From Candidatus Zapsychrus exili (GTDB lineage Bacteria; Omnitrophota; Gorgyraeia; Zapsychrales; Zapsychraceae), in NCBI GenBank assembly GCA_030765585.1, contig JAVCCJ010000075.1, positions 37,482 to 101,481 on the forward strand: a stretch of 64,000 nucleotides of DNA, written 5' to 3'. Both the position numbers and the translations under genes were made by a program. The notes below the pieces were generated by a model that had not been told where the DNA came from, made no database searches, and saw only the letters and a program-made list of their open reading frames with translations. Below are positions 3,117 through 64,000 of this stretch, piece by piece. Positions within the stretch are counted from its first letter, which is position 1; each line of letters starts with the position of its first letter.

Positions 3117-3749
3117 ATGTTAAAAACCTCATTTAAAAATGCAGTTTTTCTTATTTTTCTTGGTATTTTTATATCTTTTGTTTTGCTGGAAATAAGTTTA
3201 CGATCTGGTGGTTTTATTTTTACAGTACATCAGGATAAGAAAAATCAAGAAGCTTTAGGTGAGGATAAGATTATAGTCTTATGTATAGGAGAATCAACAA
3301 CTGCTTTAGGAGGGGAAGACTCGTATCCATCGCAACTGCAGGAAGTCTTAAATAAAAAGATTAAAGGCAAAGAGTTTAGAGTGATTAATAAAGGTATAGT
3401 TTCTAGCACTTCTAAGAATATTGCAAATAATATAAAGGGTTGGTTGGTAAAATATAAGCCCAACATTGTTATAAGCATGGTAGGAGTTAATGATAGATAT
3501 AAATCTTTAACTATTGAAAAGCCAAGTTTTACATTTGCATATTTGTTTAGAAATTTAAGAGTTTATAAGTTGTTTAAAATGTCGGCTCTTAAACTGGATG
3601 AGAAAAAAAGAGGTGTTAGTATAAAAAATGTTCGATGGATCCCTAAAGAAGAAAAGAAAGATGCTATTAAAAGTATTTTGAGGGCAATAAATAGTAGTCA
3701 AGAACTTTGGCAGGATTTAAAGAATATTGTAGACTCAAAAGATAAGTGA
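3117..3749 (+). CDS. SGNH/GDSL-type hydrolase-like protein, N-terminal part (blocks I-III) with N-terminal TM segment
   Basis: Block I-like IIVLCIGESTTALGG (Ser in GES), block II-like INKGIVSS and block III-like ISMVGVNDR. It ends at a single in-frame TGA and the next ORF continues in the same frame. Confidence 0.45.
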   Translation: MLKTSFKNAVFLIFLGIFISFVLLEISLRSGGFIFTVHQDKKNQEALGEDKIIVLCIGESTTALGGEDSYPSQLQEVLNKKIKGKEFRVINKGIVSSTSKNIANNIKGWLVKYKPNIVISMVGVNDRYKSLTIEKPSFTFAYLFRNLRVYKLFKMSALKLDEKKRGVSIKNVRWIPKEEKKDAIKSILRAINSSQELWQDLKNIVDSKDK

Positions 3750-6726: not shown

Positions 6727-7353
6727 ATGGCAAAAAAGTCGAAAGGTATTATTGTTTTGGGTGTGCTCCTGATTTTATTAGGAACATTTTGGTTGTCGTT
6801 AATTTATCAAAGAGGAAAAAGTTTTATTCCAAAAGAAAAACAACCATATTTTAAGGAGTATGGAGTAAAAGCAATTGATTATGTAGCATTAGGAAATGAA
6901 ATGAAAGAGATTCTTGCCGAGTCTAAAAGATCTTCGGCAGTAAACGTTCCAACTTTAGATAGGAAAGCCATTATTGTATTTTGGATCATTGTTTGTTTTG
7001 AGCTTATATGTGCTTTTTTATATCTGGGGTCAGGGATCTCTCTTCTGAGATTTCATTCGCTTGCAAGAGGATTTACAATCTTTACTTTGCTATTTGACTC
7101 TTTTTTAAAATGTGCGGCAGTTGTTTATCAAAGCTATATTTTAGAATTATTAGGTCAGTCTGTTTCTAAAAACATAGTTTTTAATTATTTTGCACCCACC
7201 AATGGTTTTATGTCAAAGGTATCTGCCTATTTAACAGGTGTAGGATTTGTTCAGAAAGATTCTTTGATTTATATATTGAGTTATTTGTTCTGCTTATTCT
7301 TATGTTTTTATTTTCTTACTAGGAAAAGTGTTATTAAACAATTTAATCAGTAA
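6727..7353 (+). CDS. hypothetical integral membrane protein
   Basis: Several hydrophobic helices. No recognisable catalytic motif. Confidence 0.35.
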   Translation: MAKKSKGIIVLGVLLILLGTFWLSLIYQRGKSFIPKEKQPYFKEYGVKAIDYVALGNEMKEILAESKRSSAVNVPTLDRKAIIVFWIIVCFELICAFLYLGSGISLLRFHSLARGFTIFTLLFDSFLKCAAVVYQSYILELLGQSVSKNIVFNYFAPTNGFMSKVSAYLTGVGFVQKDSLIYILSYLFCLFLCFYFLTRKSVIKQFNQ

Positions 7354-7824: not shown

Positions 7825-8760
7825 TTGAAAGATTGTTTACTAACGCCACTTATTTCTTTATCTAAAGAAAAATATCCTATAGAATGGAGCGAAGAGTTCT
7901 TGTTAGGCTCTTTGCTGGATGTTGAGATAGGCTTTGGGACTGGTGAATTCCTTATCGCAGAAGCCATTAATAACCCAGGCAGAAATTATGTAGGTATTGA
8001 GCAAAATTGGGAAAGAATTGTTAAGACTCTTAAAGTAATTACACGTCTGCATAAAGAAGGTAAGCCACTAAACAATATTAGAATTCTTCGCATAGATGCA
8101 ACTGTTGCTTTTGAAAGACTATTTGCGCAAAAAAGCATTAATTCTATTTATTGTCTTTACCCATGTCCTTGGCCAAAGAAGGGACACATAAAAAACAGAT
8201 TATTCTCATGTAGTTTTTTAAAACTTTTAAATAGTCGTTTAAAGGTAGGCGGAGATTTAAGAATTGTTACAGATTTTTATCTTTATTTTGAGTGGGTTAT
8301 AGAGCAGTCAGAGGATGCAGGCTTTAGCGTATTAACAAATAGAGTTAAGCCAAAATATAATACAAAGTTTGAGCTTAAGTGGTGTGAAGGGGGACAAGAA
8401 GAATTTTTTGAGATAAAAATGCACAAAAAAAGCCACGTTAATGTTATTGAAAGGCAAGGTGTAGAGTTGAAAACATATAAAGTAAAAGATTTTGCATATG
8501 ACAATTTTAGTTTTGAGAATAAAAAAGGCGAGATATCTGTTATTTTAAAAGATAAGCTTTTTGATAAAGATAATAAAAGGGCAATGATTTATGTAATTGT
8601 TTCAGAGCAAAATTTGACACAACATCTTTGGGTTTCTATTATTAAAGGTAAGGATTTCTGGTATATTGCTCGTGCAGAAGGACAAAAATTTTTTGCTACG
8701 CCAGCAATTTCAGAAGCAATAAAACTAATCTATGAAGCAGCTAAGTTAAGCAGTGAATAA
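7825..8760 (+). CDS. trmB: tRNA (guanine46-N7)-methyltransferase TrmB with C-terminal extension
   Basis: SAM-binding EIGFGTGEF. TrmB motifs YVGIEQ and LYPCPWPKKGH (equivalent to the PDPWxKKRH block). An extra C-terminal domain of about 100 aa. Confidence 0.75.
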   Translation: MKDCLLTPLISLSKEKYPIEWSEEFLLGSLLDVEIGFGTGEFLIAEAINNPGRNYVGIEQNWERIVKTLKVITRLHKEGKPLNNIRILRIDATVAFERLFAQKSINSIYCLYPCPWPKKGHIKNRLFSCSFLKLLNSRLKVGGDLRIVTDFYLYFEWVIEQSEDAGFSVLTNRVKPKYNTKFELKWCEGGQEEFFEIKMHKKSHVNVIERQGVELKTYKVKDFAYDNFSFENKKGEISVILKDKLFDKDNKRAMIYVIVSEQNLTQHLWVSIIKGKDFWYIARAEGQKFFATPAISEAIKLIYEAAKLSSE

Positions 8761-10915: not shown

Positions 10916-12748
10916 ATGTGTGGAATAATTGGTTATGTTGGAGACAAACAAGCGCCGCCAATACTCATTGAAGCGCTTAAGAAGTTAGAGTACAGAGGAT
11001 ACGACTCAAGTGGAGTGGGTATTGTAGCTAAAGATCAAAATAAGATTTTTGCTCAAAAGACTCATGGCAAGATTGCTAGTCTTGAAAGTTTGATCAAGTC
11101 CCATCCTTTTCCGAAAGGGTCTGTGGGCATCTCTCATACACGTTGGGCTACGCATGGTGCGCCAAACAAAATAAATTCACATCCACATTTCGATTGTACT
11201 AAAAAGATACTAATAGTTCATAACGGTATTATTGAAAATTATGAGAGACTAAGAGAGGGCCTAAAAAAAAGAGGCCATAAGATAGTTTCAGATACTGATA
11301 CTGAGATTATTGCTCACCTAATTGAAGAAAGTTATAAGGGCAATCTTTTAAAAGCTACCCAAAAGACTATTAAGCAGCTAAGAGGCGCATTTGCGCTAGG
11401 CGTTATTTGTTCTGATGAACCGGATGTTCTAGTTGCTGCTCGTCTAGGTTCTCCTTTAATTATCGGAGTTGGTAAGAATGAGAATTTTATTGCATCGGAT
11501 GTTCCTGCCATTTTAAATCATACTAATAAAGTAATTTATTTAAAAGAAGGTCAGCTAGCTGCTATTAAGAAGAACAGTATTGCAACTTTTGATTTTGACG
11601 GAAAATCGGTTAAATCAAAAATCAATAAAGTAAATTTTAAGCCTAATTCAGTTAAGAAGCAGGGTTATCCACATTTTATGCTTAAAGAGATTCATGAGCA
11701 GCCGGATGTTTTAAAACAAATGTTCCGTGAAAGAATTAGCGGTAATAATATTCATTTAAAAGGATTGAATTTAACTGACAAACAGTTAGGGAAAATAAAA
11801 AATATTGTTATTGTTGCTTGTGGTACGGCATATCATGCAGGTATGGTGGGTAGATATTTAATTGAATCTTTGTCGGGAATTCCTGTTTCAATAGATGTTT
11901 CAAGTGAGTTTAGATATCGCGATCCAATTATCACAAAAAATAGTTTAGTTGTTGCTGTTAGTCAATCAGGTGAAACTGCAGATACTCTGGCGGCTGTTAA
12001 GGAAGCAAAGCAAAAGGGTGCAAATATTGTATCTGTTTGCAATGTGTTAGGTTCATCTTTAGCACGTGTATCAGATGGCATTCGTTATACTCATGCAGGT
12101 GCTGAAATAGGAGTTGCGTCAACTAAGGCATATACAGCACAGTTGGGTATTTTTTATTTGTTGGCAATAAAGCTAGGTCTTACAAATAAGAAATTGTCTA
12201 AAAAAGAAGCTGTAAAGATAATCAAAGATTTAAAACATGTACCATCGCATTATGCGCATATTTTAAAGAATAAAAATGTGATAGCAAGAATCGCAAGAGC
12301 TAATTCTCATTTTGGATGTTTTCTTTTCTTAGGAAGAAATATTAATTTCCCATCAGCGCTTGAGGGCGCTTTAAAGCTTAAAGAGATATCTTATATCCCA
12401 GCAGAGGGATATGCTGCAGGTGAAATGAAGCATGGTCCAATTGCACTTATTGACGAATATAGAGCTGTTATTTGCATTACTCCTGAATCTGATACTTACG
12501 AGAAAATGGTATCAAATATTCAAGAGATAAAGTCAAGAAAGGGTAAGATCATTGCAATTGCAACAGAAGGTGATGCTGGTATTAAAAAGCATGCCGGAAA
12601 TGTAATTTATGTGCCAAAAGTAAATAAGCTCTTAACTCCATTACTTACAGCTCTTCCGCTACAGTTAATTGCGTATTATATTTCAGTTAAACGAGGTTGT
12701 GATGTTGATCATCCTCGCAACTTAGCAAAATCAGTTACAGTCGAATAG
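10916..12748 (+). CDS. glmS: glutamine--fructose-6-phosphate aminotransferase GlmS
   Basis: N-terminal MCGIIGY glutaminase nucleophile. Two SIS domains. C-terminal ...KSVTVE. 610 aa. Confidence 0.95.
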   Translation: MCGIIGYVGDKQAPPILIEALKKLEYRGYDSSGVGIVAKDQNKIFAQKTHGKIASLESLIKSHPFPKGSVGISHTRWATHGAPNKINSHPHFDCTKKILIVHNGIIENYERLREGLKKRGHKIVSDTDTEIIAHLIEESYKGNLLKATQKTIKQLRGAFALGVICSDEPDVLVAARLGSPLIIGVGKNENFIASDVPAILNHTNKVIYLKEGQLAAIKKNSIATFDFDGKSVKSKINKVNFKPNSVKKQGYPHFMLKEIHEQPDVLKQMFRERISGNNIHLKGLNLTDKQLGKIKNIVIVACGTAYHAGMVGRYLIESLSGIPVSIDVSSEFRYRDPIITKNSLVVAVSQSGETADTLAAVKEAKQKGANIVSVCNVLGSSLARVSDGIRYTHAGAEIGVASTKAYTAQLGIFYLLAIKLGLTNKKLSKKEAVKIIKDLKHVPSHYAHILKNKNVIARIARANSHFGCFLFLGRNINFPSALEGALKLKEISYIPAEGYAAGEMKHGPIALIDEYRAVICITPESDTYEKMVSNIQEIKSRKGKIIAIATEGDAGIKKHAGNVIYVPKVNKLLTPLLTALPLQLIAYYISVKRGCDVDHPRNLAKSVTVE

Positions 12749-12774: not shown

Positions 12775-12904
12775 TGTCATCCCTGCGAATGCACGTAAAG
12801 TCTCGTTGGGACCACGTCCCTTTACGGGCAGGGATCTCCGTTTTTAAGATTAACGTTTCTCAAATTGTTAAGCAAGATTCCTGCATTCGCAGGAATGATA
12901 GCAG
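12775..12904. repeat. Intergenic element of about 130 bp bounded by a 17-bp terminal inverted repeat (TCATCCCTGCGAATGCA ... TGCATTCGCAGGAATGA); MITE-like or structured RNA
   Basis: Inverted termini read directly from the sequence. Internal GGGAccacgTCCC hairpin. Related termini recur at 18314..18338 and 24974..25104. Confidence 0.5.
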
Positions 12905-12913
12905 GTATTAAAA

Positions 12914-13576
12914 ATGTTATTTATTGTTTCAACTCCAATCGGAAATTTAGGCGACATTACCTTTCGTGCTGTTGAGGTACTTAAGGGTGTTGATTTGATC
13001 GCTGCAGAAGATACTCGTCATACTAAAACTCTTCTTAATCATTACAATATTAAAACTCCTCTCACAAGTTATTTTGAACATAATAAAATTAAGAAAGCTG
13101 ATAAAATCTTAGATCTACTAAAGGGTGGTCAAGATGTTGCTCTTGTAACTGATGCTGGCACGCCAGGCATTAGCGACCCAGGATATAGATTGATAAATCT
13201 CGCCAAAGAACAAGGGCTAGAGGTGAATGTTGTGCCAGGGGCAACGGCGCTTATTGCTGCTTTATCAGCATCAGGCTTGCCATCTGATAGGTTTGTATTT
13301 GAGGGGTTTTTGCCGCCCAAAATGGTTGCTCGTAAAAAACGTTTATTAAAGTCGCAAGATGCAAATTGTACTGTTATTTTTTATGAATCTCCGCATAGGA
13401 TACTTAAAACTTTAGAAGACGTTTCAGCGGTCCTGCCGCACGTCAAGGTCGTGGTTGCACGTGAGCTTACAAAGAAGTTTGAAGAAGTAAAAGAGGGTAC
13501 CGCAAGGGAGCTTGTTGATCATTTCACTAAAAACAAACCTCGTGGCGAGTTTGTTTTGTTGCTTAGTAAAAAATAG
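12914..13576 (+). CDS. rsmI: 16S rRNA (cytidine1402-2'-O)-methyltransferase RsmI
   Basis: Tetrapyrrole-methylase fold motifs TPIGNLGDITFRAVEVLKGVDLIAAEDTRHT and ALVTDAGTPGISDPG. Confidence 0.85.
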   Translation: MLFIVSTPIGNLGDITFRAVEVLKGVDLIAAEDTRHTKTLLNHYNIKTPLTSYFEHNKIKKADKILDLLKGGQDVALVTDAGTPGISDPGYRLINLAKEQGLEVNVVPGATALIAALSASGLPSDRFVFEGFLPPKMVARKKRLLKSQDANCTVIFYESPHRILKTLEDVSAVLPHVKVVVARELTKKFEEVKEGTARELVDHFTKNKPRGEFVLLLSKK

Positions 13577-17171: not shown

Positions 17172-17963
17172 ATGATTAAGTCGCAGAACACATATAAAAT
17201 CATCTCAAACAAACAGGTAAGCGAGAAATTCTTTCATATTTGTATTGATGCAAAATCAATATTAAAGAAGATTAAGCCGGGTCAGTTTGTTCATGTCAAA
17301 ATAGATGACACTTTAACACCTTTTTTAAGAAGGCCATTTAGCATACATAGAGCTGATAGTTGCTTAGAAATTCTTTATGAGATTTTAGGTGAAGGCACAA
17401 AGAAACTTGCCAAGAAAAAGAAGGGTGACTCTTTAGACATTATTGGCCCTTTGGGAAATAACTTTAGCGCTCCACCAGAAGGTACAAAGAATATAACTAT
17501 TGTTACAGGCGGTGTTGGGGTAGCGCCATTTTTAGCTTTAACAGATATTCTTAAAAATAAGAAATATAATATTACGCTGCTTTATGGCGGACGTAATAGC
17601 GACTATGTGTTTAGTCTAAAAAGTTTTCTAAAGAACAAATGCAAGGTGTTTATATCTACTGATGATGGAAGCGTAGGGGTTCACGGAAGAGTTGATAAGT
17701 TTTTCAAAAATATAAGTTTTGAAGATGCATTTATTTATACTTGCGGTCCTGAGCCTATGATAAAAGAAGTACAGAAATTTGCAGTTAAGAATAAAATAAA
17801 AGGAGAAGCATCTTTAGAAGAAGTTATGGCTTGTGGCATAGGAGCTTGTTTAGGCTGTGCAACAAAAACAAAAGATGGTTTTAAATTGGTTTGTTATGAT
17901 GGGCCAGTATTTGATTTAGAAAAATTAGACTTTAATGCAAACGGGAAATGCAAATGCAAATAG
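17172..17963 (+). CDS. pyrK: dihydroorotate dehydrogenase electron-transfer subunit
   Basis: FAD/NAD-binding ferredoxin-reductase fold (RRPFSI). C-terminal 2Fe-2S cysteine cluster CGIGACLGC. Confidence 0.85.
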   Translation: MIKSQNTYKIISNKQVSEKFFHICIDAKSILKKIKPGQFVHVKIDDTLTPFLRRPFSIHRADSCLEILYEILGEGTKKLAKKKKGDSLDIIGPLGNNFSAPPEGTKNITIVTGGVGVAPFLALTDILKNKKYNITLLYGGRNSDYVFSLKSFLKNKCKVFISTDDGSVGVHGRVDKFFKNISFEDAFIYTCGPEPMIKEVQKFAVKNKIKGEASLEEVMACGIGACLGCATKTKDGFKLVCYDGPVFDLEKLDFNANGKCKCK

Positions 17964-18307
17964 TTTTATATGTATTGTTAGGATTAATAGGTGGTGGAGT
18001 CGGAGGTGCTCTTGGATTAGGAGGAGGGTCGATATTGGTTCCTGGGCTGGTATTTCTTTTTGGGCTAAGTCAGCACGAAGCACAGGGAACATCGCTTGCA
18101 GTAATGCTTCCGCCTATATTTATTTTAGCTGTTATGCGTTATTATCATGCAGGCCATGTAAATGTTAAAATGGCAGCTATCATTGCGATAGGATTTGTTG
18201 TTGGAGCTTTAATTGGAGCACATTGTGCTCAATATATACCAGACACTCATTTAAAAAAAATATTTGGAACATTCCTGATACTTATGGGGATTAAAATGTT
18301 AATATAG
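17948..18307 (+). CDS. small TauE/SafE (TSUP, DUF81)-like membrane protein, half-size, 4 TM
   Basis: Gly-rich TM motifs (GGGVGGALGLGGGSILVPGLVF) typical of the TSUP/DUF81 family. Overlaps the pyrK end by 16 nt. Confidence 0.5.
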   Translation: MQMQIVLYVLLGLIGGGVGGALGLGGGSILVPGLVFLFGLSQHEAQGTSLAVMLPPIFILAVMRYYHAGHVNVKMAAIIAIGFVVGALIGAHCAQYIPDTHLKKIFGTFLILMGIKMLI

Positions 18308-18313
18308 TTGCCC

Positions 18314-18338
18314 TGTCATCCCTGCGCAGGAATGACAG
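18314..18338. repeat. 25-bp near-perfect palindrome TGTCATCCCTGCGCAGGAATGACAG between the TauE-like gene and pyrD
   Basis: Same terminal sequence as the inverted-repeat element at 12775..12904, with the two arms abutting. Confidence 0.5.
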
Positions 18339-18351
18339 CAGAGAAGAAATT

Positions 18352-19260
18352 ATGAATTTAAAAGTAAAAATAGGAAAATTAAAATTTAGCAATCCAGTTA
18401 CAGTCGCGTCTGGTACTTTTAGTTATATGAAAGAATATAGCTCTATTGCCGAAATAAAAAAGCTGGGGGCCGTAGTTGCTAAAACAATTACTTTAAATGC
18501 TAGAGAGGGAAACCCATCTCCAAGAATTGTTGAAACAGCTGCAGGAATGGTTAATGCAATAGGTATTGAGAATAGAGGCGCAGATTATTTTATTGAAACA
18601 AAATTGCCTGAGCTTAAAAAGTTGGGTGTGCCGCTTGTTGTTAGTGTGTCTGCCAAAGAAGATAAAGAGTTGATATCATTAGTTAAAAAATTAAACAAAG
18701 CAAAAGGTATCGCCGCAATTGAATTAAATCTATCTTGTCCGAATTTAAAACATAAAACACTTGTTGCTCAGGATAAATATGCGACGTACAGAGTAATAAA
18801 AGCTGTTAAGAAGGCAACCAAATTACCTATAATTGCAAAACTATCTCCAAATGTAACTGATATAGTGCTTATTGCAAAATCTGCAGAGCGTGCAGGCGCT
18901 GATGCGTTAAGCTTGGTTAATACATTTTCAGCTATGGTAATAGATATTGATAAACGTAAATCTAAAATAGGAAACTTTACGGGCGGCTTAAGCGGGCCTG
19001 CGATAAAACCAATAGCAGTCAAGATGGTATATGATGTTGCACAGACGGTTAAGATACCAATTATTGCAATGGGTGGCATTATGAATGCAGATGATGCATT
19101 AGAATTTATTATAGCAGGCGCTAGTATGGTTGCTGTGGGTACTGCTAATTTTGTTAATCCATCAGCGCCAAAAGAAATTCTTGCTGGCATAAAAAGTTAT
19201 ATGAAGAAAAATAAAATTAGAGACATAAAGAAATTAATTGGAAGCATAAAGAAGGGCTAG
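18352..19260 (+). CDS. pyrD: dihydroorotate dehydrogenase catalytic subunit (class 1B)
   Basis: FMN-binding TIM-barrel motifs, NLSCPN active-site loop and GGIMNADDALEFIIAGASMV. Confidence 0.9.
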   Translation: MNLKVKIGKLKFSNPVTVASGTFSYMKEYSSIAEIKKLGAVVAKTITLNAREGNPSPRIVETAAGMVNAIGIENRGADYFIETKLPELKKLGVPLVVSVSAKEDKELISLVKKLNKAKGIAAIELNLSCPNLKHKTLVAQDKYATYRVIKAVKKATKLPIIAKLSPNVTDIVLIAKSAERAGADALSLVNTFSAMVIDIDKRKSKIGNFTGGLSGPAIKPIAVKMVYDVAQTVKIPIIAMGGIMNADDALEFIIAGASMVAVGTANFVNPSAPKEILAGIKSYMKKNKIRDIKKLIGSIKKG

Positions 19261-24966: not shown

Positions 24967-24973
24967 GATTGTT

Positions 24974-25104
24974 GTCATTGCGAGGAGCGAAGCGACGCGG
25001 CAATCTTATATCAAATGACGAGTGTTAATCTAGAAGAGATTGCCATACTCGGTTTTCGCCTGCCTGGCTAACGCCAGTCAGTCAGACCTCGTTCGCAATG
25101 ACAG
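24974..25104. repeat. Inverted-repeat-bounded element of about 131 bp (TGTCATTGCGAGG ... CCTCGTTCGCAATGACA) inside the V-ATPase operon between atpD and atpI
   Basis: Terminal inverted repeat TGTCATTGCGA / TCGCAATGACA. Internal hairpins GGCAATCTt...AAGAGATTGCC and CTGGCtaacGCCAG. Confidence 0.5.
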
Positions 25105-38327: not shown

Positions 38328-38336
38328 AGATAAGAA

Positions 38337-38597
38337 ATGTATTATACTTATATTTTGAGAAGTAAAAAAGATAATTTATGGTATACAAGTTATATAAAAG
38401 ATTGAGATGTGCGGTTAAAAAAGCATAATAAGGGTAAAGTGTTATCAACAAAAAATAGAGCGCCTTTTTAGTTGATTTATTATGAGGCTTGCATAGATGA
38501 AAGAGATGCTATTGCAAGAGAGAAATATTTAAAATCTGGGATGGGAAAACGTTATTTAAGAAATAGAATGAAGTTTTTCTTATCTCTAACGGGGTGA
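38337..38597 (+). pseudogene. GIY-YIG nuclease-family small ORF inactivated by two in-frame stop codons
   Basis: Single-frame translation MYYTYILRSKKDNLWYTSYIKD*DVRLKKHNKGKVLSTKNRAPF*LIYYEACIDERDAIAREKYLKSGMGKRYLRNRMK. This matches the GIY-YIG pattern (YxYIL, YxG, RLxxHN, YxE, KxxxxK), with TGA and TAG at conserved Leu and Glu positions. Confidence 0.6.
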
Positions 38598-38603
38598 ATA
38601 AAT

Positions 38604-47349: not shown

Positions 47350-47557
47350 TTAGTAGTTATTTATATGTGTTAGACAGTGTTTTATCAAAATATTGACCAT
47401 AGTTTGCTCTTGTGGTAGTATTATGCCCTATATAAAATATAGTTTTACTTTTTAAAGAGTTGTAATATAATACGTATTCTATTTATTATTAATTTTATAT
47501 AAAATGTTTTTAAACAATATATTATTTAAAAATGCTCGCAAAAGGTGGTGATTTAGA

Positions 47558-47716
47558 GTGATTGAAGTAAAAGTTTCTGATCCGCATAATTTTGAAAAAG
47601 CTATGCGTATATTTAAAAAAGCATGTCAAAAAGATGGTTTTATGATGGAGTTGAAAGAAAGACGATATTATTGTAAGCCTTCTGAAAAAAAGAGACATAA
47701 AGGTAAGAAAAGATAA
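47558..47716 (+). CDS. rpsU: ribosomal protein bS21
   Basis: 52-aa GTG-start ORF absent from the ORF track: VIEVKVSDPHNFEKAMRIFKKACQKDGFMMELKERRYYCKPSEKKRHKGKKR. Matches the S21 pattern (I.V...E..E.AlrrFkr.c.k.g...e.rrr..yekpse.rk). SD AGGTGG 8 nt upstream. Confidence 0.75.
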   Translation: MIEVKVSDPHNFEKAMRIFKKACQKDGFMMELKERRYYCKPSEKKRHKGKKR

Positions 47717-47825
47717 ATATTGTATTAATTTGGCTTTGCGCCATGAGTTTGTTGTTTTGTGTCCTAATAGCTAGGCATAAACATAAAGCTTTGGCGTAAA
47801 GCCATTATTTATTTAAGGAATCATA

Positions 47826-52819: not shown

Positions 52820-53206
52820 TTATTCTCTTTTTTTGTAGGTTAACTATTACGTATAATAGTATAGCATTGTTAATATTTTATTCAATAGAGGGCTTCATTA
52901 ATGTGTAAGTTTTAAAAAAGTTCAAAACTTGCACTTTATTCTAAAAATAGTTTAAAATAATCGCTTATAAATTTGCATTTTGTTCTTTTATGTATTATAT
53001 TTAAGGTGAAGTAAACGCTTCCTTTTTAAGAAAGAAGGCATTTACTAATTCCAGCCACGAAAGTTATAGTTCTTAATTCCAGCCACAGGTAGTTTTGTTA
53101 GAATTTTAGCTTAATAAAAAATAAATTTCTTGATAATCAGTGATTTAGGCATTAAAATAAAAATATATTTGTTGCAGAGCGTTGATAATAAATAACTTAT
53201 AAAGAT

Positions 53207-63377: not shown

Positions 63378-64000
63378 ATGTTAGTAAAAAAGTTTTTATT
63401 TGTATTAGTTTGTATATGTTTTTTATTTTCAGGGTGTTCAGAGTACAATAAAAGTAAAGAACAATCCCCTGTTGATTTAGATCAAAAATCTCTTTATGTA
63501 TCTGATATAGCAGATGTATTTGATAATAAAATATTGAATGTAAAACAAAAAGATGTCGTTGATTATAGCTCTTTAGAAGAATCAGTTGTATATCAAGAGT
63601 ATGGCGTCGAGCAAACAGCAGGAAATACATTGCAGCAAGCTTTTGAACCTTTTTATGTTTATTATGAAAAAGGTTCTCCTCAAAATCATTATATACCCTC
63701 AGGTTTTATGCCAAACGGAAAATGTCTTTCTTTAAGTGATGGATGGATGTCGGATTGTCATTCTGCGCAGACATGTATAAAGGTAGAGTATGATTTACAA
63801 TGTTCAAGACAGGATCAAAGATGGGCAGGAATTTATTGGTTAAATCCAGCAAATAATTGGGGAGGCCGAAAAGGTGGATTTAATCTGACTGGTGCAGAGA
63901 AATTAGTTTTTTGGGCAAAGGGAAATAAAGGCGGAGAGCAGATAAACGAAGTTATAGTCGGTGGAATTTCTGGAGATTATCCTGATTCAGATAAAACTTG
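63378..64000 (+). CDS. secreted lipoprotein, partial (runs off the window end)
   Basis: RBS AAGGAAAG. Signal peptide with lipobox LFSGCS. Open frame to the window end (not in the ORF track because no stop falls inside the window). Confidence 0.5.
   Translation, partial: MLVKKFLFVLVCICFLFSGCSEYNKSKEQSPVDLDQKSLYVSDIADVFDNKILNVKQKDVVDYSSLEESVVYQEYGVEQTAGNTLQQAFEPFYVYYEKGSPQNHYIPSGFMPNGKCLSLSDGWMSDCHSAQTCIKVEYDLQCSRQDQRWAGIYWLNPANNWGGRKGGFNLTGAEKLVFWAKGNKGGEQINEVIVGGISGDYPDSDKT

Follow-up and report, generated by a model that had tools for sequence, protein, structure and literature searches.

The spacer between glmS and rsmI in Candidatus Zapsychrus exili, a member of the Omnitrophota, holds a 126-bp element that is likely a gene-less inverted doublet of two oriented hairpin units of the Neisseria Transformation Sequence (NTS) or Ssn-related motif (SRM) type, and an internally deleted derivative of a hairpin-ssn-hairpin unit. 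This element (element 1) lies at 12775-12900 of a stretch of 64,000 nucleotides (NCBI GenBank assembly GCA_030765585.1, contig JAVCCJ010000075.1, positions 37,482 to 101,481 of the forward strand) that was analysed as a whole and is called the window below. Element 1 is a real repeat, probably of mobile origin. Units of this family have the general form 5'-(T)GTCAT, stem, loop, stem, ATC-3', and because the GTCAT ends face outward in an inverted pair, such a pair appears to have terminal inverted repeats. The original prediction had described element 1 as resembling a miniature inverted-repeat transposable element (MITE) or a REP, and as belonging to a small repeat family; the family instead crosses phyla and is already known as the NTS/SRM repeats of Ssn nucleases (PMC11893778).

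Three elements are present in the window, at 12775-12900 (element 1), 18314-18337 (element 2), and 24973-25103 (element 3), tallied in the comparison with the NTS/SRM family as five full hairpin units and one collapsed arm pair. All are intergenic and lie between the + strand gene pairs glmS/rsmI, tauE-like/pyrD, and ntpD/ntpI (V-type ATPase subunits D and I), respectively. The window is ∼33% G+C, with local G+C peaks at two of the three elements (12775-12900 and 24973-25103). The left arm of element 1 is TGTCATCCCTGCGAATGCA (12775-12793) and its right arm is TGCATTCGCAGGAATGATA (12882-12900); they are inverted copies identical at 17 of 19 positions, or at 16 of 17 when counted from TCAT inward, as had been predicted. 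Between the arms lie 88 nt, and the predicted internal hairpin is found at 12808-12820 (GGGAC-CAC-GTCCC); we place the right end at 12900 and not 12904. Two independent metagenome assemblies carry the whole element without a single base difference.

Although the arms are indeed inverted, what look like 17-bp terminal repeats are better explained by a pair of distinct oriented hairpin units, of which they form the outer arms. Taken alone, either unit pairs with itself perfectly (ATCCCTGC/GCAGGGAT in the left, ATTCCTGC/GCAGGAAT in the right), whereas long-range pairing of the outer arms contains a C/T mismatch. The left unit (12775-12839, + strand) is forward and long-looped, and consists of TGTCAT, the stem half ATCCCTGC (12779-12786), a 41-nt loop, the stem half GCAGGGAT (12828-12835), and CTCC, such that the unit ends in ATCTCC. 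It was retrieved with 8 pairs by a structural scan for GTCAT, a stem, and ATC, and as single-stranded DNA (ssDNA) it folds at −12.7 kcal/mol (z −3.3). Within its loop is a 34-nt insertion (12794-12827, + strand), absent from the short unit, that is itself a hairpin (CGTAAAG...CTTTACG around GGGAC-CAC-GTCCC). Loop insertions were also seen in other family members (L238, L189, L131, L375, L377, and L382; L-numbers denote loci or contigs used for comparison), and among 13 metagenome matches none had the exact long-looped form of element 1 beyond its own locus. The right unit (12873-12900, − strand) has the short form TATCATTCCTGCGAATGCAGGAATCTTG, with an 8-bp stem (ATTCCTGC/GCAGGAAT), a GAAT loop, and a 5' flank of ATC instead of GTC; as ssDNA it folds at −7.8 kcal/mol (z −5.3). 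We summarise this short unit as TATCATTCCTGCGAATGCAGGAATC. The two units point their TGTCAT ends outward and are separated by a 33-nt, AT-rich spacer (12840-12872) that begins GTTTTT and occupies the position of the ssn open reading frame (ORF) in the coding units described below.

The other two elements differ from element 1 in instructive ways. In element 2 (18314-18337) an outer left arm directly abuts an outer right arm (TGTCATCCCTGCG followed by CGCAGGAATGACA), in agreement with the abutted palindrome predicted from 18314 onward; that is, a ATCCCTGCG left arm is fused to a CGCAGGAAT right arm, with the same C/T asymmetry as in the outermost arms of element 1. Its − strand folds at −8.2 kcal/mol with a G.T pair and its + strand at −6.1 kcal/mol with a C.A mismatch. 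We infer that element 2 is a collapsed doublet that arose by deletion. In element 3 the plan of element 1 is reversed: here the left unit has the short loop and the right unit the long one. The left unit (24973-25007, + strand) is TGTCATTGC-GAGGAGCGAAGCGACGCG-GCAATCTT, and its ssDNA fold was no better than shuffles; a spacer (25008-25035) follows, and the right unit (25036-25103, − strand) consists of TGTCATTGC, a 52-nt loop with CTGGC-GTTA-GCCAG, and then GCAATCTC, folding as ssDNA at −12.5 kcal/mol (z −2.3). Element 3, which the original prediction placed at 24974-25104 as a diverged copy, has only its termini (TGTCAT/ATGACA) and overall architecture in common with element 1; its stems are ATTGC...GCAAT, and it represents a sister hairpin class instead. 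ATC closes each of the four units of elements 1 and 3, and GTCAT starts three of the four as well as both ends of element 2, the right unit of element 1 having ATCAT.

The short unit resembles a hairpin that gives rise to spurious peptides in databases, and the pattern scans were made to test this resemblance. A literature search for spurious peptides encoded by such hairpins (RFRGND, FAGMT, VIPAKAGIQ, and others) gave nothing relevant. The hairpin is that of the NTS, CGTCATTCCCGCGMAVGCGGGAATCYRG, which contains dRS3 and for which a degenerate relative, the SRM, has also been defined (PMC11893778). Ssn proteins are single-domain GIY-YIG proteins (cd10448). SsnA, which has 94 aa, binds and cuts the NTS hairpin only as ssDNA and is not active on RNA; the cut made by Ssn lies on the GTCAT side, a few nucleotides further 5', and ssn genes typically have the motif on both sides, a layout like that of an insertion sequence (IS) that the authors likened to REP/RAYT (PMC11893778). 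The dRS3 core has been known for more than two decades, whereas the repeat-nuclease pair was published in 2025 (Nat Commun; PMC11893778). By our count TATCATTCCTGCGAATGCAGGAATC differs from the NTS at ∼5–6 of 28 positions, two of which form a compensating pair, and it is thus a compensated AT-variant of the Neisseria NTS/dRS3 hairpin. Both units of element 1 have ATTCC-type stems along with the ssDNA folds given above, and the flanks give the units the orientation expected of the family (GTC(AT) before the stem, a C immediately behind it), apart from the ATCAT of the right unit.

The scans of viral and genome collections found the family to be widespread. The pattern TCATYCCYGCGAAWGCRGGRAT occurred in at least 120 viral stretches, on contigs of 40–71% G+C. 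Of the 153 matches listed for this pattern, 147 were Watson-Crick at both variable pairs of the stem, and among them a C-G at the first variable pair was observed 20 times as compared to ∼3 expected under independence of the two sides; this covariation indicates selection on the hairpin. The AT-variant TRTCATYCCTGCGAATGCA occurred in at least 119 stretches of species-representative genomes, and the matches listed include Ignavibacteria/Kapaibacterium, Bacteroidota, KSB1, Daviesbacteria and Gracilibacteria (both candidate-phyla-radiation lineages), Leptospirales, Spirochaetota, Omnitrophota, Proteobacteria, and others. The class of element 3 (GTCATTGCGAG...GCAATC) was found in at least 120 viral stretches, and it too forms doublets elsewhere. 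Exact matches to the 22-nt core of the right unit of element 1 were obtained in L004 and L092, and to its 19-nt form in L123, L139, L199, and L239.

These counts dispose of the fallback offered with the original prediction, that the three sites are unrelated chance palindromes or ordinary terminators. Within the window alone the idea had some footing: there are only three sites, and the 13-mer TGTCATCCCTGCG at up to 3 mismatches was found 8 times against 4.7 expected, a figure that is uninformative for exact matches. Yet the exact 13-mer occurs twice (12775 and 18314), as compared to a chance expectation that we calculate as ∼0.002 in 128 kb (both strands), and both copies have reverse-complement partners (12888-12900 with 2 mismatches, 18325-18337 with 1). 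Moreover, more than 230 unrelated contigs contain exact 19–22-nt matches whose flanks and architecture also agree. This refutes chance, to which we assign a negligible probability.

Doublets are common in the family. Among the genome matches listed, 54 of 125 forward units (43%) had an inverted partner ending in ATGACR within 200 nt; these 54 doublets had a median length of 74 bp (range 53–157), and in 40 of them the stem of the partner differed. Doublets are therefore a normal form of the family, among which element 1 owes its unusual length to the loop insertion. What the same ends can enclose became apparent from a profile built from GIY-YIG ORFs in the fetched loci, which detects ten Ssn-like ORFs there, the two that were checked being PF01541; NCBIfam holds no model for Ssn-like proteins. 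At six loci (L040, L045, L141, L165, L219, and L247) GIY-YIG ORFs of ∼95 aa lie inside GTCAT...ATGAC units of 358–403 bp. One of these, L247, is an Omnitrophota contig, and its Ssn is 71% identical to a Leptospirales one. Upstream of ssn lies a forward hairpin, often with a long loop. Directly 3' of the gene, L141, L219, and L217 have the hairpin GATTCCTGCATTCGCAGGAATGACA, from which the right unit of element 1 differs by one terminal base, and this hairpin variant flanks ∼95-aa GIY-YIG ORFs in L141, L163, L219, L217, and L247. In one Kapabacteria genome two near-identical ssn copies are found at different loci, each within arrays of forward-reverse doublets in which ssn fills one forward-reverse interval. 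Because the same ends enclose ssn elsewhere and nothing of the kind here, element 1 has the layout of the coding unit minus the gene.

Some observations on individual loci may be added. The two Kapabacteria copies (GCA_026418625.1, L385 1250-2100 and L386 1250-2100) lie at unrelated loci and have ∼540 bp in common, including flanking doublets; the forward units there start with GTCAC and have stems ACTCCTGC. The phage contig L004 carries two 71-bp AT-variant doublets (7116-7186 and 8616-8686) 1.5 kb apart, in which the central 23-nt spacers are mutually reverse-complementary while the ends and outer flanks have the same orientation; it looks as if the doublet core had been flipped between the palindromic hairpins. 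Metagenome contigs L374, L376, L378, L381, and L384 contain tandem arrays of 2–3 forward units, with a 17–22-nt spacer that is also repeated and usually one inverted unit at the end, which resemble Neisseria NIME or BIME arrays.

The coding units also bear on whether element 1 is a classical MITE, i.e., a deletion derivative of a DDE-transposase IS moved by cut-and-paste through its 17–19-bp terminal inverted repeats. The inverted repeats (17 of 19 positions), small size, intergenic position, and empty orthologous site in relatives would all agree with this, and the MITE-like or REP-like reading holds as far as architecture, the TGTCAT...ATGACA ends of the coding unit, and the empty site are concerned. 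However, no direct repeats flank any of the three window elements, and the target-site duplications that were to be looked for are thus lacking at each. Moreover, each arm is one half of a local hairpin that is fully compensated by itself; the stems of the partners differ in most of the listed doublets, which a transposase binding terminal inverted repeats would not tolerate; and the coding relative bears a 95-aa nuclease and no transposase. A DDE-type parent is missing. Several near-identical copies of a whole element were not found either, as the window elements differ and the long-looped form was at one locus only in the metagenome scan. We therefore regard a classical MITE as very improbable.

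The occupancy of the spacer itself varies among related genomes. The gene order dsbA-L27-glmS-rsmI is kept in Omnitrophota, but the glmS-rsmI spacer is empty in L243 and L244 (1 nt each) and in L371 (0 nt), and 165 nt long in the window, where it holds element 1. In L245 it is 257 nt long and contains two other GTCAT hairpins, one of them the canonical GTCATTCCCGCGAAAGCGGGAATCC. In L370, from another Omnitrophota, it is 227 nt long and contains a doublet (2378-2448) of a third class (TGTCATCCTGAACGAAGGGAAGGATC...CAGAATGAC, also given as TGTCATCCTGAACGAAGGGAAGGATC...CTCAGAATGAC). That different classes have independently come to occupy one spacer speaks for insertion and against inheritance. 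Related GTCATTCTGA...AGAATC units lie beside the AT-variant in L124, L194, L198, L209, and L239. L242, which at first appeared to be another filled site (156 nt as compared to 1 nt), was rejected, as 3576-3675 is a run of N left by scaffolding and bordered by duplicated sequence.

As a non-autonomous doublet, element 1 probably arose from a hairpin-ssn-hairpin unit by internal loss of the gene, and it would have entered the glmS-rsmI spacer through Ssn-dependent or recombination-dependent copying, without target duplication. Cuts would be predicted just outside each end, and on opposite strands because the two units are inverted. In Ca. Zapsychrus exili the doublet is now most likely a decaying passenger: the right unit has ATC for GTC, and GTC is needed for cleavage, which together with the collapsed copy at 18314 suggests decay.

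Several points weigh against this explanation. Ssn-driven transposition of such units is itself hypothetical, PMC11893778 noting the IS-like layout alone. No ssn gene was found in the 64-kb window by the GIY-YIG profile search, and none beside the ATTGCGAG class, to which element 3 belongs, in 118 viral loci or in ∼360–390-bp units bounded by that class. The published NTS pattern and SRM regular expression match none of the units, and the latter matches nothing anywhere in the window, so that the grounds for family membership are the direct comparison and the position of such units next to ssn elsewhere. The three window elements are not near-identical and the long-looped form was at one locus only in the metagenome scan, which gives no sign of recent proliferation. 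Lastly, the comparison of filled and empty sites is made between genera (∼70% RsmI protein identity), at which distance precise junctions are unreadable.

A different explanation is that the elements serve the host at the RNA level, as selected stem-loops that terminate or stabilise the glmS and ntp transcripts or as an FtrB-like small RNA (sRNA). As RNA, the 151-nt regions form much more stable structures than their shuffles, with −47.8 kcal/mol for element 1 (z −4.5) and −52.3 kcal/mol for element 3 (z −4.1). A T-run (CTCCGTTTTT) comes after the stem end of the left unit at 12835, and AAATTTTTT comes after element 3, which on a check for a terminator-type U-run is directly succeeded by GAAATTTTTT. 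In addition, the right unit weakly matches Rfam RF02748 (FtrB), whose consensus holds the same hairpin (guCauuCcCGCGuAGGCGgGaauCUC). FtrB is a verified 115-nt Francisella transcript, and deletion of ftrB had no phenotype (PMC3091763). Opposing such a role, related genomes have a glmS-rsmI spacer of 0–1 nt, and the element is thus unnecessary for these genes; unrelated hairpin classes occupy the same spacer elsewhere; and SsnA does not act on RNA, nor did deletion of ftrB give a phenotype. Element 1 is not a member of FtrB: in a permissive scan only the hairpin aligned (window 12845-12922, − strand), with 20.1 bits (E 0.27–0.4) as compared to a gathering threshold of 66 bits. At the gathering thresholds of Rfam the window contains two tRNAs only. 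Promoter and terminator scans of the region gave counts equal to the shuffle expectation, terminator-like sites numbering 7 against 6.9 expected. We consider selection for an RNA-level role unlikely. As a side effect it would nevertheless be compatible with a mobile-derived doublet: because the doublet lies inside transcription units, it would form a very stable stem-loop in the mRNA, and from its sequence an incidental effect on termination or decay is plausible.

What is new here is the Omnitrophota member of the family and a variant stem outside the published pattern, as the repeat-nuclease pair and the dRS3 core were already known. For the window the weight of the finding is small, the elements being passengers in the spacers of housekeeping operons. 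More broadly, AT-shifted variants and whole phyla (Omnitrophota, candidate-phyla-radiation lineages, Ignavibacteria, and KSB1) have been under-counted because the published search pattern misses them. A term search of PMC11893778 returned no description of the gene-less doublet form in the text so covered. Gene-less doublets with the ends of the ssn unit are what one would expect of Ssn units that act as insertion sequences do and leave miniature derivatives, a hypothesis raised but not tested by the authors (PMC11893778). More tentatively, the doublets might be the non-autonomous form, comparable to MITEs or PATEs, of a minimal mobile element of ∼360–400 bp, with the 95-aa Ssn as its sole gene, that exists in interchangeable hairpin classes (ATTCCSGC, ATTGCGAG, and ATCCTGA), crosses phyla, rides phages, and repeatedly occupies the same spacers, such as that behind glmS. 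Ssn would then be the driver of a class of ssDNA mobile elements with hairpin ends that had gone unrecognised; we find this possible, though on balance we doubt it.

Recognition of the family would also clean up annotation, in which the hairpins give rise to recurrent spurious peptides and were once catalogued as an sRNA family (FtrB). Hairpin arrays at L042 (17-463), L024, and L084-L086 translate into the pseudo-peptides SFPRKRES, VIPAQAGIQ, DSRLRGND, and IPACAGMT, and such pseudo-peptides are likely called as spurious small proteins.

Upstream of element 1 and outside it is glmS (10916-12748, + strand; Pfam SIS and GATase domains), and downstream, also outside it, is rsmI (12914-13576, + strand; PF00590), encoding the 16S rRNA C1402 2'-O-methyltransferase, which is 100% identical to a protein of the Ca. 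Zapsychrus exili MAG. The 18 window ORFs that were compared with Pfam belong to housekeeping or uncharacterised families; neither a nuclease nor a transposase was among them. Directly before element 2, a 119-aa ORF (17948-18307) between pyrK (17172-17963, a 16-nt overlap) and pyrD (18352-19260) aligns with no more than the C-terminal half of the TauE/SafE profile (129-237 of 237); it may encode a transporter of half the usual size, or be what a truncation left behind at the junction of a rearrangement. The scan for GTCAT, a stem, and ATC also picked up TGTCATTCTGCGCAGACATG at 63757-63776, within a large ORF, which is probably a chance match, as ∼5 such matches are found in shuffles. The longest non-coding gaps of the window (38328-38603, 47350-47825, and 52820-53206; 276–476 nt) contained no Rfam match at gathering thresholds and no member of the hairpin family.

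Among known systems, one rival to Ssn as the source of such elements is RAYT, the Y1 HUH tyrosine transposase that would mobilise a REP/REPIN-type doublet, as in Pseudomonas and the BIMEs of E. coli. The inverted imperfect palindromes, short spacer, intergenic position, and absence of target duplication all agree with this, and the parallel was drawn in the Ssn study as well (PMC11893778). However, the gene repeatedly enclosed is that of a GIY-YIG nuclease and not of a Y1 transposase, and near-identical sequence recurs over many phyla whereas REPs are lineage-specific. The conserved 5' word is GTCA(T), whereas REPs reportedly follow a GTAG rule. We thus hold mobilisation by RAYT to be quite improbable, while noting that the REP/BIME/REPIN system is similar in organization, with inverted palindrome doublets and a single-copy gene flanked by the same repeats; the difference is an HUH Y1 protein and GTAG there, and GIY-YIG and GTCA in the Ssn-type family.

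IS200/IS605 elements and their gene-less PATE derivatives likewise have hairpin ends, ssDNA chemistry, and unequal left and right hairpins, both on the same strand. The doublets share with them all of these features but the last, as well as the existence of miniature gene-less versions; here the end hairpins are inverted, and the enzyme family differs. With Neisseria dRS3 and NIME arrays (ATTCCC-N8-GGGAAT), the core of which is contained in the NTS, the window units have the hairpin core in common. NIME-like arrays are found among the TCATYCCYGCGAAWGCRGGRAT matches (e.g., L042, L077, and L084), and tandem arrays occur in the AT-variant also. The exact dRS3 word is nonetheless absent from the window units (ATTCCTGC...GCAGGAAT and ATCCCTGC...GCAGGGAT), and the host is an Omnitrophota. 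dRS3 is known as a phage integration target. The Rfam FtrB consensus contains an NTS/SRM-type hairpin (guCauuCcCGCGuAGGCGgGaauCUC), and such loci can give a stable transcript of ∼115 nt; only this hairpin can be aligned to the right unit of element 1, with a score under the threshold, and FtrB sRNA may itself be the transcript of an NTS/SRM-type repeat element. The nearest likeness is to the NTS/SRM repeats. These are also intergenic, repeated, oriented hairpins in which an ATTCC-type stem is preceded by GTCAT and followed by ATC, and in other genomes a variant of the right unit of element 1 adjoins Ssn-family genes as hairpin-ssn-hairpin. As compared to the NTS, the stem is changed in a compensatory manner (CCCGC/GCGGG there, CCTGC/GCAGG here), the loop is GAAT, and a few flank bases differ; in element 1, moreover, the units are arranged as an inverted doublet that lacks a gene and has 34 nt inserted in one loop.

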